Under the pieces are notes generated by a model that made no database searches, was not told the DNA's origin, and worked only from the letters and a program-made list of their open reading frames with translations. The position numbers were made by a program, and so were the translations under genes. From NCBI GenBank assembly GCA_030649735.1, contig JAUSFL010000035.1:5044-69043 (forward strand): DNA of 64,000 nt, written 5' to 3'. The first letter of the stretch is position 1, and the number at the start of each line of letters is the position of its first letter. Shown here piece by piece: positions 1 to 5,323 of this stretch. The stretch comes from Candidatus Iainarchaeum sp. GTDB taxonomy: Archaea; Iainarchaeota; Iainarchaeia; Iainarchaeales; UBA10191.

Positions 1-542
1 TAATCTGCGGTTTCTTTCATGATTGTTTCAAAATCGCTGTTGCGCCTTTCTCCCCTGAAAGCAAGGATTGCGTCAGAGAGCTCGCCAAATTCTTCAGCCA
101 AGTGAATGCCTGCAATTTCAAGGCTTCTTGAAGCCGGGGGGTAAATTCTTTTGAACATTTCCTGGAATTCATGCATTGTTTTAGGCCTTTTGCTTTCAAT
201 CACGTCAACTTTTCTCCTTCCGGGAATTGATTCTGCCTTGCAAGTGCATGAAATGTTTCCGCAGTAAGAGCACAAGTAAGGAAACCTTTGCCAAAGCGCG
301 TCTTCAATGTCAATGTGAAGCCTTGTCGCCATTGAAGTGTACCAGCTTAAAGAGCGCAAAAAATTAAGCTTGGCTTTCTCAGGATTTCCCTGGCGTATTC
401 CCTTAATCCCTAAAGTGACAAACCTGTGGACATTCGCGAGCATTTCAGCCAATTCAAACCCGCGGTCGTTCGGGAGGTCGTAGACTTCGTTGATGAATTG
501 CTGGAATTCTTTAATGCTTCCGTTTTCTGGAAAATTAGCCAT
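1..542 (-). CDS. Tandem MazG-like NTP pyrophosphohydrolase with Cys-rich motif (partial, runs off window start)
   Basis: Not in ORF track. Manual translation from ATG at 542: MANFPENGSIKEFQQFINEVY...FPYLCSYCGNISCTCK...TMHEFQEMFKRIY...HLAEEFGELSDAIL...IMKETAD. EExGEL...ExAD is the MazG acidic motif. Confidence 0.75.
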   Translation of the reverse strand, partial: MANFPENGSIKEFQQFINEVYDLPNDRGFELAEMLANVHRFVTLGIKGIRQGNPEKAKLNFLRSLSWYTSMATRLHIDIEDALWQRFPYLCSYCGNISCTCKAESIPGRRKVDVIESKRPKTMHEFQEMFKRIYPPASRSLEIAGIHLAEEFGELSDAILAFRGERRNSDFETIMKETAD

Positions 543-626
543 TACAATTGCCTATTTAATTGTTTTTAAAAAGCCAAATATTAGTTTAAAAGGAATTTTT
601 GGAAAGAAGAATGAAAGGCAGAATTT

Positions 627-773
627 TCATTCTACCTTGTATGTTTTCCTGTCGCAGAATTCTTCTTTTTTTCCCGCATTCCAGTTCTGGATTGGCCTAT
701 AGTATCCGACAACTCGGGAATACACTTCTGTCTTTTCTCCGCATTCTATATTTCCTTCTTGTTCTTGTGTCAT
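627..773 (-). CDS. Stand-alone glycyl-radical domain of class III ribonucleotide reductase (48 aa)
   Basis: MTQEQEGNIECGEKTEVYSRVVGYYRPIQNWNAGKKEEFCDRKTYKVE contains the NrdD glycyl-radical motif YSRVVGYYRP. A GGAGGT Shine-Dalgarno lies upstream. Starts 1 nt after the nrdD stop. Confidence 0.9.
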   Translation of the reverse strand: MTQEQEGNIECGEKTEVYSRVVGYYRPIQNWNAGKKEEFCDRKTYKVE

Positions 774-774
774 A

Positions 775-2817
775 TTATATTACCTCCAAGGCTCTCTCTT
801 TAATCATATTGGTTTTGACGACTACAGGGCATGTTTCATGATTTCCCGCAACATAACCGTGCGTTTTGCAAATGCTGAATGTAGGCGTTATTGTAAAGTA
901 CGGCAAGTGATAGTTTTCCGCAATTTTTCTGACGAGTTTTTTGCAGGCTGTCGGACTTGAAATTTTTTCCCCAATAAAGCCGTGCAGCACTGTTCCGCCA
1001 GTGTACTTGCATTGCAGTTCGTCCTGGTGGTCTAATGCTTCAAAAATGTCGTCAGTGTAATCAACAGGCAAGTGCGAGGAATTCGTGTAGTATGGCGCGT
1101 TTTTTCCGGCCTGCAAAATGCCTGAAAGGTTTTTTTGGTCATGCCTTGCAAACCTGTATGACGTTCCTTCTCCAGGAGTTGCTTCCAAATTGTACATGTG
1201 GCCTGTTTCTGCCTGGAATTCCTGCAGTCTTTCGCGCATGAAGTCCAAAACCCTGAGTGCAAAGGCCTTTCCTTCAGGAGTCTGGATTCCGCTGTCAGGC
1301 CCTAAAAAATTCAGGCAAGCCTCATGCATTCCATTCAATCCAATTGTTGCAAAGTGATTGTTCAAAGTACCCAAGTATCTTCGCGTGTAAGGCAATAATC
1401 CTTGGTCCATGTTTTTTTGAACTTCTTTCCTTTTGATTTCAAGGCTTTCTTTTGCCAGAATCATCAGCCTTTCAAGCCTTGCAAAGAATTCTTTCTCGCT
1501 TTTTCCCTTGCTCAAGAAAGCCAAGCGAGGCATGTTTATTGTAACGACTCCAACGCTTCCAGTTGACTCTCCGGCCCCAAACAATCCGCCAGTCTTGCTT
1601 TTGAGCTTTCTCAGTTCATTCAAGTCAAGCTGCAGCCTGCAGCACATTGAGCGCACGTCATGCGGTTTTAATGAACTGTTGATGAAGTTTTGAAAGTATG
1701 GAATTCCGTACTTTGCGGTCATTTCAAAAAGCAATTCCGCATTTTCTGAATCCCAATTAAAGTCTTTGGTTAAGTTGTAGGTTGGGATTGGGAATGAAAA
1801 AGTCCTTCCGTCAGCGTCTCCCTTAATCATCATGTCCAGGAAAGCCCTATTTATCAAGTCCATTTCATCCTGGAAGTCGCTGTAAGTCTGGTCTTGCAAT
1901 TTTCCTTTAATGATTACTGGCATGTCTTTCATGTCTTCTGGAACAGTCCAGTCCAATGTAATGTTTGTGAAAGGCGGCTGATTGCCCCAGCGGGAAGTCT
2001 GGTTGACGCTGTAAACAAACTCTTGCAGGCCTTGCTTTACTTCCTCGTAAGACAATCCTTCCTTCCAAATGAACGGGGCAAGATAAGTGTCAAAGCTTGA
2101 GATTGCCTGCGCTCCAGCCCATTCATTCTGCAAAGTTCCAAAAAAATTCACTAGCTGTCCTACTACTGCATGCATGTGTCCTGCCGGGCCTGCAGCAATT
2201 CTTCCAGAAACTCCCCTGAATCCTTCAGTGAGCAATTGCCTGAAAGACCATCCTGCACAATAGGCCGCGAAAACCCCGTGGCTTAAGTCATGAATGTGCA
2301 AGTCCGCGCTCCTGTGCGCGTCAGAAATTTCTTTTGGGTAAATGTTATTCAAAGTGTATTCTGCGACAATGTTTCCTGAAATGTGCGCCTGCAGGCCGGT
2401 CATTGAGTAAGTTTCGTTCGCGTTTTCTTTCACGCGCCAGTCAGTTCCAATCAAGTAGCCGTCAATTATTCCCTCGGCTTTTCTCAAAAAGCTTTTCGTG
2501 TCCCTTAACTGCCTTCTTTGCTCCCTGTAAAGAATGAAAGTCTTTGCAGTGTCTGCGTATCCTTCCTTGATTAGGATTCTTTCAACAATGTCCTGGATTT
2601 CTTCAACAGTCGGGTTGGTGTTTCCAAATCTTTCCTTCAACTGCTGGACTATTTTGTCAGTCAATTCTTCAGCAATCCAACGGTCTTTTCCACCGACTGC
2701 CTGTGCTGCGGCAAAAATTGCATTGGTGACTTTTTCACGGTCAAACCTTGTTGTACGGCCGTCTCTTTTAATCACGCAGTCAAAATACTTTTTTGCCTCT
2801 TGCATCTCTCTCAACAC
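775..2817 (-). CDS. nrdD: Anaerobic (class III) ribonucleoside-triphosphate reductase, catalytic barrel with N-terminal ATP cone, lacking the C-terminal glycyl-radical segment
   Basis: ATP cone VIKRDG, HIHDL, YCAGWS, FSFPIPT, RSMCCRL finger loop, YNLEATPGE, YTGGT, FSICKTHGY...TCP. No RVxGY motif in this ORF. Confidence 0.95.
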   Translation of the reverse strand: MLREMQEAKKYFDCVIKRDGRTTRFDREKVTNAIFAAAQAVGGKDRWIAEELTDKIVQQLKERFGNTNPTVEEIQDIVERILIKEGYADTAKTFILYREQRRQLRDTKSFLRKAEGIIDGYLIGTDWRVKENANETYSMTGLQAHISGNIVAEYTLNNIYPKEISDAHRSADLHIHDLSHGVFAAYCAGWSFRQLLTEGFRGVSGRIAAGPAGHMHAVVGQLVNFFGTLQNEWAGAQAISSFDTYLAPFIWKEGLSYEEVKQGLQEFVYSVNQTSRWGNQPPFTNITLDWTVPEDMKDMPVIIKGKLQDQTYSDFQDEMDLINRAFLDMMIKGDADGRTFSFPIPTYNLTKDFNWDSENAELLFEMTAKYGIPYFQNFINSSLKPHDVRSMCCRLQLDLNELRKLKSKTGGLFGAGESTGSVGVVTINMPRLAFLSKGKSEKEFFARLERLMILAKESLEIKRKEVQKNMDQGLLPYTRRYLGTLNNHFATIGLNGMHEACLNFLGPDSGIQTPEGKAFALRVLDFMRERLQEFQAETGHMYNLEATPGEGTSYRFARHDQKNLSGILQAGKNAPYYTNSSHLPVDYTDDIFEALDHQDELQCKYTGGTVLHGFIGEKISSPTACKKLVRKIAENYHLPYFTITPTFSICKTHGYVAGNHETCPVVVKTNMIKERALEVI

Positions 2818-3022
2818 CTTTTTTCAATGACTAAAACTCCCATTCAAAAAGAGAACAATTTTTTTCTTTCGAAAATTGTAAAGTATTACTAAGCGAAACT
2901 TCTTTAAAAAACTTTCCAAAAAAAACAAAAACCGAAAAAATACCCCGCAAATCAGTTTGCAAACCAGAGTCTAATCTTCGTTTTGTTCACTTTCCAAATT
3001 TAAGTTGGTTTCGTCAAAAGCC

Positions 3023-3307
3023 TTAAAATTTTATTGAAAATTCTTCCATCTGGTTTTTCTTTGAAGAAAACTTTTTTTCAATCCTTTCCACTCTCGCAAA
3101 CCCGGCATCCTGCTCTAAAATTTCCAGCAGTGAAAGCAATTCTTTCTTTTCTCCAAAAGCCTCTAATTCCACAGTCCCGTCCCCGCAATTCTTGACCCAT
3201 CCGGCAAGTCCCAGTCTTCGTGCGTTTTGCCTTACAAACGCCCTGAATCCAACGCCTTGCACTCTTCCAAAAGCCTTTGCGAAAACGCAGTTTTCATTAT
3301 TGCTCAA
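3023..3307 (-). CDS. acyP: Acylphosphatase
   Basis: GRVQGVGFR and GWVKNxxDGTVE signatures. Confidence 0.95.
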   Translation of the reverse strand: MSNNENCVFAKAFGRVQGVGFRAFVRQNARRLGLAGWVKNCGDGTVELEAFGEKKELLSLLEILEQDAGFARVERIEKKFSSKKNQMEEFSIKF

Positions 3308-3753
3308 GCTTTCGCCTTCAATTCCTTCAATTTTTCCTCAAGCTCTTCAAGCGAGCTTACTATTTCAACGCAAGAGTTTGAAATCATCAGGTTCAATTGC
3401 TTTTTTTGGTCAAAAATCCTGCTGTCATTCAAAAACCCTATTATTGGAATTCCTTTAGAATACAAATAACCAATCTCAAAGGCAGTTCCTGAATCAACAT
3501 CCAGCCCATCAAGCAATGCAACGCAAGCACTGCAGGAATCCATTGCCTTCAAGTCTTTTTCAAAAAAAGGCCTTGGGGGACAGTCTCTTTTGAAGACTCC
3601 GGCGTTCTTGTGCGGCAAATAAGCAATAAAGCCCCCTCCTTCTTCTTCTCCTCCTCTTCCGGCCTTTTCGCAAACAGCGCCGATTTCTTCAATGTGCTTT
3701 CTATGGTATTCAGTGAACAATGGCCCGGCTACATAAACGATTGGCTTTTCCAT
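3304..3753 (-). CDS. Nucleoside 2-deoxyribosyltransferase family protein
   Basis: VYVAGPLF, YLPH, DLKAM, DSGTAFEIGY, NLMI. Start set at MEKPIVY (3753) to avoid overlapping the divergent gene. Confidence 0.85.
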   Translation of the reverse strand: MEKPIVYVAGPLFTEYHRKHIEEIGAVCEKAGRGGEEEGGGFIAYLPHKNAGVFKRDCPPRPFFEKDLKAMDSCSACVALLDGLDVDSGTAFEIGYLYSKGIPIIGFLNDSRIFDQKKQLNLMISNSCVEIVSSLEELEEKLKELKAKA

Positions 3754-3802
3754 AACTTGTCTTGTACCTGTTTGTTTTTTTAATTCTTTCCAGCCTTCAA
3801 TA

Positions 3803-4396
3803 ATGCACATGCTTAAAGAGATCAGGATTCACGGCCGGGGAGGCCAAGGCGTTGTCACAAGCAGCGAGCTTTTGGCAATTGCGGCCTTTAATGACGGAAA
3901 GCAATCCCAGGCTTTTCCTAATTTTGGGGTTGAAAGAAGCGGCGCGCCGATTTCAGCATTCACCAGAATAAGCAATGAAAAAATTAATTTGCGCCAGCAA
4001 ATTTACGAGCCTGATTATGTGATTGTTTTAGACTCAAGCCTGCTTTCAACTGTCGAAGTCACCAAAGGGCTGAAAAACAACGGCCTTTTGATAATAAATT
4101 CTGACAAAAAGCCAGAAGAGCTCGGCTTGAAAACAAATGCCAGAATGGTTTCTTTTGATGTTTCAAAAAAAGCAATTGAAATTTTGGGAAAGCCATTGGT
4201 TAATGTTGCAGTGCTTGGGGCTTTTGCAGCGCTGACAAAAGAAATAACGCTTCCTTCATTGCTTAATGCAATAGACCAAGAGTTTGAAAGCAAGAAAGAA
4301 ATTGCTGAAAAGAACAAAAAGCTTGCGGAAATACTTTACAAAGAAAACATTGCGGTCGAGAAAGAAAAATCAAGGGCTGGCAAAAATGGCAAATGA
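3803..4396 (+). CDS. porG: Pyruvate/2-oxoacid:ferredoxin oxidoreductase gamma subunit
   Basis: EIRIHGRGGQGVVT, FPNFGVERSGAP. Start may be 3809. Confidence 0.93.
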   Translation: MHMLKEIRIHGRGGQGVVTSSELLAIAAFNDGKQSQAFPNFGVERSGAPISAFTRISNEKINLRQQIYEPDYVIVLDSSLLSTVEVTKGLKNNGLLIINSDKKPEELGLKTNARMVSFDVSKKAIEILGKPLVNVAVLGAFAALTKEITLPSLLNAIDQEFESKKEIAEKNKKLAEILYKENIAVEKEKSRAGKNGK

Positions 4397-4913: not shown

Positions 4914-5323
4914 TTCAAATGAAAAAAGAAACCATGATTCTTGCAATTTTGATTGGAAGCATGGTTGCATTAAGCGGATGCATTGAAGCGCTTTTTTCTT
5001 CAGGCATATATAATACTCCAGCGAACTGCACTCAATTTGGCGGCAGATTATTGCTTAAAGATTATTCTATGGCTCAAAATTCAATAAAATTGACAGTGCA
5101 GAATGGAAGCTCTGGAGAAATCAGTTCAATAAAAGCTAAGGCTTCAGGATTTGCCGCGAGAATAAATGGAGTTGAAGACTTGGATTCGCTGCCAAGGTCT
5201 GACAATGCTGAAATTGTTTTTTCGGGAAACACTGAAAAGGGAAAGTCTTACTCATTAATTGTCAGCTACTCCAGCAATGGGATAAATCATGAAGAAACCA
5301 CGACTTGCACTGTTGCAAAGTAA
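4910..5323 (+). CDS. Putative lipoprotein with pilin-like/beta-rich extracellular domain
   Basis: MKKE, hydrophobic stretch, LSGC lipobox; paired Cys. Confidence 0.65.
   Translation: MIQMKKETMILAILIGSMVALSGCIEALFSSGIYNTPANCTQFGGRLLLKDYSMAQNSIKLTVQNGSSGEISSIKAKASGFAARINGVEDLDSLPRSDNAEIVFSGNTEKGKSYSLIVSYSSNGINHEETTTCTVAK

Follow-up and report, generated by a model that had tools for sequence, protein, structure and literature searches.

Must a class III ribonucleotide reductase (RNR) have its radical domain as part of its catalytic chain? Class III RNR is the textbook one-chain glycyl-radical enzyme, and the solved structures and the reviews, so far as their accessible text goes, place the radical domain at the C-terminus of the catalytic chain. 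The locus considered here raises the question anew. It lies in a 64,000-nt stretch of the Candidatus Iainarchaeum sp. assembly GCA_030649735.1 (contig JAUSFL010000035.1, forward-strand positions 5,044 to 69,043), which we call the window, and it consists of a large gene, nrdD-L, followed on the minus strand by a 48-codon gene, nrdD-S (Table 1). On the strength of sequence comparison, we consider it very probable that the window encodes a class III (anaerobic, glycyl-radical) RNR made of two polypeptides.

Two genes for one NrdD

The large chain is recognized without difficulty, scoring 1036 bits against NCBIfam NF006126 (cut-off 548) and 487 bits against TIGR02487 (cut-off 326). Its longest open reading frame (ORF) opens at GTG 2817 and gives 680 aa (775..2817 including the stop), but the ATG at 2805, with AAGGTG 9 nt upstream, is the more likely start. 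The C-terminal sequence reads ...FSICKTHGYVAGNHETCPVVVKTNMIKERALEVI, and base 774 is the sole spacer between the nrdD-L TAA (777-775) and the nrdD-S ATG (773-771). Of the 562 positions of the Pfam profile NRDD (PF13597), nrdD-L covers 1-526 (577 bits) and nrdD-S covers 525-562 (44.3 bits, E 1.3e-11, cut-off 26.2); together the two frames reproduce the profile end to end and are complementary halves of the NrdD C-terminus. The RVxGY glycyl-radical motif is therefore not on the nrdD-L polypeptide, which ends at profile position 526, and sits instead on the 48-aa ORF. In PHROGs, nrdD-S gives only a weak match to a full-length NrdD family (E 0.005).

The break also divides a metal site. Zinc ligands were assigned by alignment to fused relatives and from the accessible text on the published NrdD zinc site, and by this assignment the four ligands do not lie within one chain: Cys, His and Cys are on nrdD-L, and the fourth, Cys11, is on nrdD-S. 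The large-chain residues concerned (C646, H649, C659 and the adjoining P660) are invariant in 12 of 12 aligned large chains, as are C388 and C389 of the finger loop, one of which presumably carries the thiyl radical. The alignment of 40 small proteins, a set chosen for having the Cys, shows 16 invariant residues. When compared with fused relatives that read C-P-x-C-G, the window has 16 tail and 10 leader residues in place of the single x.

An initial annotation of this locus, made from the sequence alone, had described an nrdD that ends without the glycyl-radical motif, a new frame one base past its TAA with an embedded GGAGGT Shine-Dalgarno (SD) sequence, and a split falling inside CPxC. The end of the PF13597 match bears out the first, the minus-strand sequence confirms the second, and the third corresponds to a break between the third and fourth zinc ligand positions. 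The description was correct in all details checked, save that its approximately 26 extra residues at the junction are counted here as about 25 (16 and 10 replacing one).

Table 1. Features of the nrdD-L/nrdD-S locus and its downstream neighbors; positions are those of the window unless another record is named.
Feature	Position	Strand	Remarks
nrdD-L, class III RNR large chain	778..2805	minus	676 aa from ATG 2805; stop TAA 775-777
nrdD-S, radical subunit	627..773	minus	48 codons, MTQEQEGNIECGEKTEVYSRVVGYYRPIQNWNAGKKEEFCDRKTYKVE; stop 629-627
nrdD-S Cys11	743-741	minus	fourth zinc ligand position
nrdD-S Gly23	707-705	minus	radical glycine within RVVGY
Shine-Dalgarno GGAGGT for nrdD-S	782..787	minus	inside the final nrdD-L codons, 8 nt before the ATG
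Tail after Cys-Pro of nrdD-L	778..825	minus	16 residues, VVVKTNMIKERALEVI; final codons hold the nrdD-S SD
ATP-cone of nrdD-L	2512..2775	minus	residues 15-102 of the 680-aa ORF; PF03477 86.3 bits, E 2.1e-24
Finger-loop Cys-Cys (SMCCRLQ, 1650-1630)	1639..1644	minus	C388 and C389; presumed thiyl-radical site
First three C-terminal zinc ligands of nrdD-L	829..870	minus	Cys 870-868, His 861-859, Cys 831-829; C-x2-H-x9-C-P
Terminator-like hairpin and T-rich run	615..638	minus	overlaps the nrdD-S stop; 10-pair stem
Next downstream gene	3..542, 3' end beyond the window	minus	227 aa; MazG-like match weak (E 0.0048, below cut-off)
Paralogue of the 227-aa protein	L001:2428-3129	minus	64% identical
NrdG	L001:1372-2073; TIGR02495 match G000:C22:3231-3797	minus	233 aa; 220 bits (cut-off 131)
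Second NrdG-like radical-SAM protein	L001:536-1345	minus	269 aa; TIGR02495 147 bits; 39% identical to the first

Authenticity of the junction

One explanation does away with the two-chain enzyme altogether: the break would be an assembly or sequencing indel, or nrdD would be a pseudogene in a host-dependent salvager of deoxynucleosides. The genome is indeed a metagenome bin, and a nucleoside 2-deoxyribosyltransferase gene is found two genes upstream of nrdD. Positions 400-1400 of the window were compared with four public runs (X1-X4). Run X1 is identical throughout, but it may be the source and is not counted as independent; in X3 and X4, no contig crosses the junction with 31 letters on both of its sides. 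Independent support for the junction is thus from X2 alone, a run from a different study in which a 2,041-nt contig spans 400-1281 with 23 substitutions and 1 indel. That sole indel is a G inserted behind position 600, in the spacer downstream of nrdD-S and outside both genes; the junction itself is without an indel, and the change at 778 is synonymous. Among the coding substitutions listed for X2, to which these counts refer (14 further differences lie outside the table), 21 of 22 are synonymous, the other being R630K, and both of those in nrdD-S are synonymous.

The small gene also bears the mark of constraint. Its pooled ratio of nonsynonymous to synonymous differences per site (pN/pS) is 0.20 over a 31-codon core in 9 pairs of relatives, where synonymous sites are near saturation in several pairs and the ratio is, if anything, overestimated; between the window and a same-genus relative, pS is 0.79 and pN 0.093. 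By these values, nrdD-S is evidently evolving under purifying selection. With both frames full-length matches under such selection and the same architecture found in 92 related genomes, error or decay is scarcely credible as an account of the locus. The initial annotation had already judged a sequencing error unlikely, and error is excluded by the X2 junction, by the selection on the small gene and by split relatives that have an SD and ATG of their own. Among the checks it had proposed, those for an indel (here on contigs) and for fused relatives came out in favor of the split, since the X2 contig keeps the junction with no frame-restoring indel, and the relatives, far from all being fused, are in their majority split.

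A second explanation accepts the DNA but not the second protein: a +1 frameshift or read-through at ATA-TAA-T-ATG would yield one fused chain, and the small ORF would go untranslated as such. Stop and start are just one base apart, and in 3 relatives both ORFs are in the same frame with a TAA alone between them. However, a TAA in the nrdD-S frame stands three codons ahead of that gene's ATG, so that slippage would be confined to two codons, and RNA at the junction folds no better than shuffled sequence (z +1.03), as good a fold being reached by 170 of 200 shuffles. Rfam gives no match in window positions 400-3100 at E up to 1. A frameshift stimulator, a bulge-helix-bulge (BHB) or other intron, and a riboswitch were dropped as candidates on the same two grounds. 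From the large-gene stop to the small-gene ATG, the split loci of relatives vary from -41 to +58 nt, with all three frame offsets represented and an SD and ATG always present, which rules out recoding by a shared signal; two cistrons fit this pattern, and no single frameshift or read-through mechanism does. Elsewhere, among the best 150 of the cluster representatives described below, 112 of the 116 short ones that carry the motif begin with Met. Recoding is, in our judgment, a very improbable source of the pattern.

Signals around the genes add little. The hairpin that overlaps the nrdD-S stop is a hint, and only a hint, that nrdD-L and nrdD-S form one unit; hairpin-type sites in the region number 2, versus 3.0 +/- 1.6 expected by chance. 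A sigma-70 promoter scan, which is not meaningful for an archaeon, gave counts at chance level.

Split and fused relatives

For the order to which the window's genome belongs, PF13597 was searched in 61 genomes (the window's and 60 others), of which 31 matched. Thirty same-order loci were examined and 27 classified, 21 as split and 6 as fused; L031 and L039 are truncated, and L033, read by hand, is also split. Each of the 21 split loci has an SD-like motif (GGAGG, GAGGTG, AGGTG or, once, GGGGTG) at 5-10 nt before the ATG of the small ORF. The tails of the split large chains vary in length and sequence, mostly ending ..EV(K/I), a recurrent C-terminus that is the GGAGGT SD in translation and not a protein-level motif. 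These comparisons bear out the central claim of the initial annotation, that the fourth Cys and the radical Gly lie on the small chain of a true two-gene RNR.

The break is not always in the same place. Canonical fused relatives (L011, L029 and L035) read C-x2-H-G-Y-x7-C-x2-C-x3-x-E-V-Y-S-R-V-V-G-Y. Fifteen of the 21 split loci are broken as in the window, between the third and fourth ligands (type A). L015, L017 and L018 (type B) retain C-P-x-C on the large chain, and their small chain opens ..TKCEVYSR; three further split loci have a candidate fourth Cys on both chains. L033 is broken at yet another point (type C); its genes overlap by TGATG, and a thioredoxin-like ORF and then NrdG follow downstream. 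Exactly at the type A position, the remaining fused relatives (L012, L013 and L016) have an expanded loop, C-P-x(7-12)-C, and L016 is the sister of the split L022, with which it has the prefix CPVEVS in common. An AlphaFold model of the fused L012 (20-sequence alignment; mean pLDDT 85.5, pTM 0.83) gives this loop block a mean pLDDT of 71, versus 92 and 90 in the flanking blocks, and no secondary structure. By Foldseek, the solved structures nearest to this model are one-chain NrdDs, those of P. copri, S. thermophilus, T. maritima and T4 (E 8e-34 to 4e-22).

A six-frame search with the small protein in 196 genomes of the order extended the count, with matches in 107 genomes at 117 places, 102 of them in open frames of at most 102 aa and 15 in frames of at least 202 aa. 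By genome, 92 have short frames only, 12 long frames only and 3 both (G094, G024 and G104, the long-frame match in G104 being weak); one of the 12 is ambiguous at 202 aa, and some of the short frames are cut by contig ends. Two other peculiarities of NrdD genes were seen in the course of this work. Many in the order (G053:C25, G040:C9, G028:C52, G044:C16, G016:C6, G042:C59 and others) have open frames of 987-1512 aa in which the profile breaks near positions 50/53, 154/160 and 263, and these look like inteins at three or more sites. Others (L024:994-3093, L070:832-3195 and L059:934-3126, all on the plus strand) have a C-x2-C zinc-ribbon-like segment before the ATP-cone, in which we presume a resemblance to the N-terminus of the NrdR repressor.

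Outside the order, one genome per GTDB species was scanned with the small-protein alignment and the best 80 loci were kept, a set enriched for look-alikes that does not measure prevalence. Sixty-six of the 80 had a large chain long enough, and 18 of these are split and 48 fused. The split loci belong to Lentisphaerota (6), Desulfuromonadia (2), Verrucomicrobiota, Planctomycetota, Margulisiibacteriota and Elusimicrobiota (1 each), "delta-proteobacterial" bins (2), unclassified bacteria (3) and an Iainarchaeum record (1). In the first locus classification, L062 and L066 were atypical and L043 was listed three times, and the split and fused counts are those of the 93-row tree set described below. 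In a collection of 5.8 billion proteins, matches at E up to 0.001 include 102 that are 26-84 aa long, and a few of these bear the source name "anaerobic ribonucleoside-triphosphate reductase". A set of 1.84 billion cluster representatives contains 3,144 matches at E up to 0.001, and 95 at 1e-10; the best 150 of the 3,144 comprise 117 of at most 110 aa, 31 of 111-599 aa and 2 of at least 600 aa. Of the 116 short ones with the motif among these 150, 106 have, as in the window, a Cys only at the fourth-ligand position.

Several of the loci and proteins found in this way are unusual in themselves. P0150, P0129, P0139, P0209 and P0135 are NrdD-type radical proteins of 142-190 aa with a C-terminal glutaredoxin/thioredoxin domain, radical subunits thus joined to a likely reductant. 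In L097 (uncultured bacterium, CAIMLT010000013.1), a stand-alone radical domain with two C-x2-C pairs of its own is found 139 nt downstream of a fused NrdD, a spare-part-like arrangement beside a complete enzyme, and in L066 the small gene is inside a long open frame. On the Lentisphaeria chromosome CP091727.1 (L043, 2998-3535, plus strand), three near-identical 41-codon small genes stand in tandem, repeating every 206 nt; AAGGAG precedes the ATG of each, and NrdG follows the array; the large gene there is broken into several frames in a long-read assembly. Two further small radical genes look phage-borne: one follows, in the same frame, an ORF for a phage Mu F-like head protein (L062:3-848, plus strand), and the other is an orphan near a T7 gp14-like gene in a Victivallaceae bin (L084:3001-3117).

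Whether the split arose once or many times was addressed with trees of the large chains. In a 26-row tree, from which the C-terminal region was left out and L020 was dropped for its interrupted large frame, one clade holds the canonical fused and type B forms and the other the type A forms, with the three fused-loop forms nested among them; at least 5 changes between fused and split are needed. Forcing the 20 split rows together, a group defined by the trait after the tree was seen, costs 394.9 log-likelihood units (p-AU 4.5e-7). A 93-row FastTree that adds the GTDB loci requires at least 11 changes, 7 of them forced by well-supported branches, and shows separate all-split clades for PVC bacteria (8 rows) and for Desulfuromonadia with unclassified bacteria (7 rows). 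As read from these unrooted trees, the history is one of several independent fissions at three positions, or of frequent re-fusions.

The small protein matches more than once in nine genomes of the order, and the neighbors of 11 such places were scanned. In three genomes (G098, G046 and G099), a second small gene is clustered with a Fur-family regulator (PF01475) and a rubrerythrin with a rubredoxin-like domain (PF02915, PF21349), which it overlaps by ATGA; a CDGSH/Fer4_19 protein comes next in G098, the one cluster where that neighbor was scanned. In G094, where NrdD is fused in a 723-aa frame, an orphan small gene directly adjoins the gene of an AhpC/TSA peroxiredoxin and is about 0.5 kb from one of the Fur family, and in G119 an orphan is flanked by an ArsR-type regulator and an FTR1 iron permease. 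The G119 locus is present on two near-duplicate contigs (L122 and L124), with a DUF1858 protein also alongside, and a TAA interrupts the copy in L124. Two split systems, both complete, are present in G114 (L129, 697 and 49 aa; L130, 672 and 51 aa), though with contamination estimated at 3% a mixed bin is possible. The orphan copies read RVCGY, versus RVVGY in the nrdD-linked copies of the same genomes. These oxidative-stress neighborhoods, all in genomes other than the window's, are the best circumstantial support for small chains acting as in-trans replacements.

A two-chain enzyme and its rationale

The window's own genome leaves nrdD-S little choice of role. At 92.7% completeness and 2.3% contamination, it has one NRDD body in the PF13597 search and one radical loop, even by profile at E up to 1; no match was found anywhere in it to PF01228, the Gly_radical domain of pyruvate formate-lyase (PFL) type, or to PF02867, the large subunit of class I/II RNR. 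The large chain being without a radical glycine, and no other RNR or radical domain having been found, nrdD-S would be an obligate subunit here; unless another RNR is encoded in the missing 7%, deoxyribonucleotides appear to be made de novo by the two-gene enzyme only. The initial annotation had reported no recognizable nrdG in the window, which is literally so, but the activase is not missing: two NrdG-type genes lie just outside, downstream of nrdD-S and on its strand, the first some 1.25 kb past the left edge. Given one radical domain in the genome, nrdD-S is apparently the only candidate substrate of both. That two activases of this type accompany a single candidate glycyl-radical substrate is a curiosity of this genome.

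In the mechanism we propose, nrdD-L contributes an ATP-cone, the barrel for catalysis (which includes the Cys-Cys finger loop) and ligands one to three of the zinc ribbon, and nrdD-S, translated from its own SD and ATG, contributes Cys11, the RVVGY loop with Gly23 and a short C-terminal tail. By homology, the small chain should dock into the barrel as the glycyl-radical domain of a one-chain NrdD does, its loop opposite Cys388/389, and would be tethered by a zinc site common to both chains, with Cys11 completing Cys646/His649/Cys659. The downstream-encoded NrdG would then abstract a hydrogen from Gly23 and so place the radical there, from where it would pass to a finger-loop cysteine for nucleotide reduction. 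Oxygen cleaves one-chain NrdD at the radical glycine; in the two-chain enzyme, the same cleavage would destroy only the 48-residue part, which could be replaced without remaking the 676-residue body. Such a limitation of the loss to a replaceable 48-mer is likely but unproven. The accessible text on P. copri NrdD describes its radical domain as a zinc site, then a Gly loop that is buried, then a tail on the surface; with dATP bound, the domain is too mobile to be visible (PMC11226230).

None of this would apply if the small protein served another partner, as a free carrier of the radical or as a regulator, and if the role of the truncated large chain were non-catalytic. Orphan small genes do occur away from nrdD in relatives and in phage-like regions. 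Against this, the small gene is coupled to nrdD-L in the window, no other glycyl-radical enzyme body was found in the genome, and the large chain keeps all the invariant barrel and finger-loop residues; a partner other than nrdD-L is accordingly most unlikely.

For what the split is good for, two readings have to be weighed. The first is that nrdD-S is an exchangeable "radical cartridge", activated by NrdG and reversibly docked, a fresh copy of which restores activity after oxygen has cleaved the chain at Gly23; we put this forward tentatively, as a possibility with rather less than an even chance. Its extension, in which relatives add spare copies regulated by peroxide stress and phages carry their own, is speculative. 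The second is neutral fission: the same two-chain enzyme, whose chains assemble once, co-translationally, and then act as a one-chain NrdD does, with nothing exchanged after oxygen damage and the split of no consequence for function. To this we assign a probability not far short of even. In fused relatives, the loop where the break falls is already expanded and is modeled with lower confidence; the nesting of fused-loop forms among split ones implies a state that flips easily; the arrangement of stop, one base and ATG fits stoichiometric coupling; and this genome has one copy of the small gene. What a purely neutral break would not lead one to expect is the dominance of split forms in the order (92 of the 107 genomes with the loop), their recurrence in at least 7 well-supported places of the 93-row tree, the three tandem copies with an SD each on the Lentisphaeria chromosome, and the extra copies in oxidative-stress clusters, one of them in a genome whose NrdD is fused. 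The probability left beside these two goes to mixtures, for example easier activation of a free peptide.

A number of points weigh against the enzyme as we have drawn it, or against its exchangeable part. The contact between the chains and their shared zinc site are extrapolated from homologues. In the three type B relatives, all four ligands are on the large chain and there is none at the fourth-ligand position of the small one, and in type C (L033) the large chain ends after the first pair of ligands and the small chain holds C-V-H-C-G, both Cys of the second pair; a shared zinc site is therefore not a general requirement. DPANN archaea are known for split genes, and the split may recur because a break in a loose loop arises easily by mutation and is tolerated, rather than through selection. 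With its single copy of the small gene, the window's genome does not allow a spare-part role to be read from its own gene content. Finally, no RNA run among the public runs carries window positions 400-1400. In sum, the two-gene class III RNR is, by these comparisons, widespread and recurrent, and its functional rationale is open to both the cartridge and the neutral reading.

Past nrdD-S, the same strand carries an 84-nt spacer, the 227-aa protein, its paralogue, a 131-codon ORF without a family, NrdG and the NrdG-like gene. The two paralogues of about 230 aa, between nrdD-S and nrdG, have conserved CxxC...CxC motifs and may be nucleotide-pool "house-cleaning" enzymes of the nrd operon. On the other side, directly upstream of nrdD-L on the same strand, are an acylphosphatase gene (3023-3307, minus) and then that for the nucleoside 2-deoxyribosyltransferase (3304-3810, minus), a deoxynucleoside-salvage enzyme near the de novo one.

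The family to which the enzyme belongs is that of the one-chain NrdD/NrdG systems (T. maritima 4COI/4U3E, P. copri 8P23, S. thermophilus 9D3X and phage T4 1H78; phmmer E 2e-39 to 3e-17), with which it has in common the ATP-cone, the barrel, the zinc ribbon with the RVxGY loop after it, and an NrdG close by. Its Cys-Cys finger loop is as in the T. maritima NrdD lineage, to go by the accessible text on that lineage. Whereas the solved one-chain NrdDs carry the zinc ribbon and the radical glycine on the barrel chain, the chain in the window ends after the third ligand. A functional parallel is GrcA/YfiD of E. coli, like nrdD-S a small free-standing protein with a glycyl-radical loop activated by a radical-SAM activase; phage T4 has a comparable autonomous glycyl-radical cofactor in Y06I. 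GrcA/YfiD belongs to PF01228, whereas nrdD-S matches PF13597 only, and it backs up a complete PFL, whereas nrdD-S is the constitutive and sole radical domain, for an RNR. The extra small genes of relatives in oxidative-stress clusters come closer to the logic of GrcA/YfiD, and in G094, as with GrcA/YfiD, a small gene coexists with a complete enzyme. YfiD, as the available text reports, repairs oxygen-cleaved PFL (PMC8683613).

RNR genes are split elsewhere too. The class II enzyme of Pseudomonas aeruginosa has its catalytic subunit encoded by two adjacent genes as two polypeptides, NrdJa and NrdJb (PMC9669993 and PMC4860495, in their accessible text), and six phage nrdD genes are reported as interrupted in what is available of PMC3653736. 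In NrdJa/NrdJb and in the phage nrd genes interrupted by introns, inteins or endonucleases, the split is at another place, the chemistry is that of B12 or di-iron, or the cause is a mobile element; neither parts the glycyl-radical domain from the barrel, and the window has no intervening element. Full-text literature searches, together with the accessible portions of PMC4390871, PMC9669993, PMC13450708 (a 2026 glycyl radical enzyme review), PMC3653736, PMC11528403, PMC11226230 and PMC4860495, yielded no account of a class III RNR whose radical domain has a gene of its own; subscription-only papers and supplements, in which one may exist, lie outside this coverage.

Small genes of this kind are easily overlooked or labeled as fragments, and genomes that have them may be scored as having a truncated nrdD. 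A natural two-chain form would show that the radical domain of class III RNR is a separable module. It would also provide a substrate peptide of about 50 residues that can be made, labeled and titrated in order to ask how the activase reaches a buried glycine. Replacement of a damaged part, proven only for pyruvate formate-lyase, thus becomes testable for the enzyme that makes the DNA precursors of anaerobes. If the cartridge reading is true, it would be a recurrent adaptation of class III RNR to fluctuating oxygen and the RNR counterpart of the repair of PFL by YfiD, with the repair built into the basic architecture of the enzyme.

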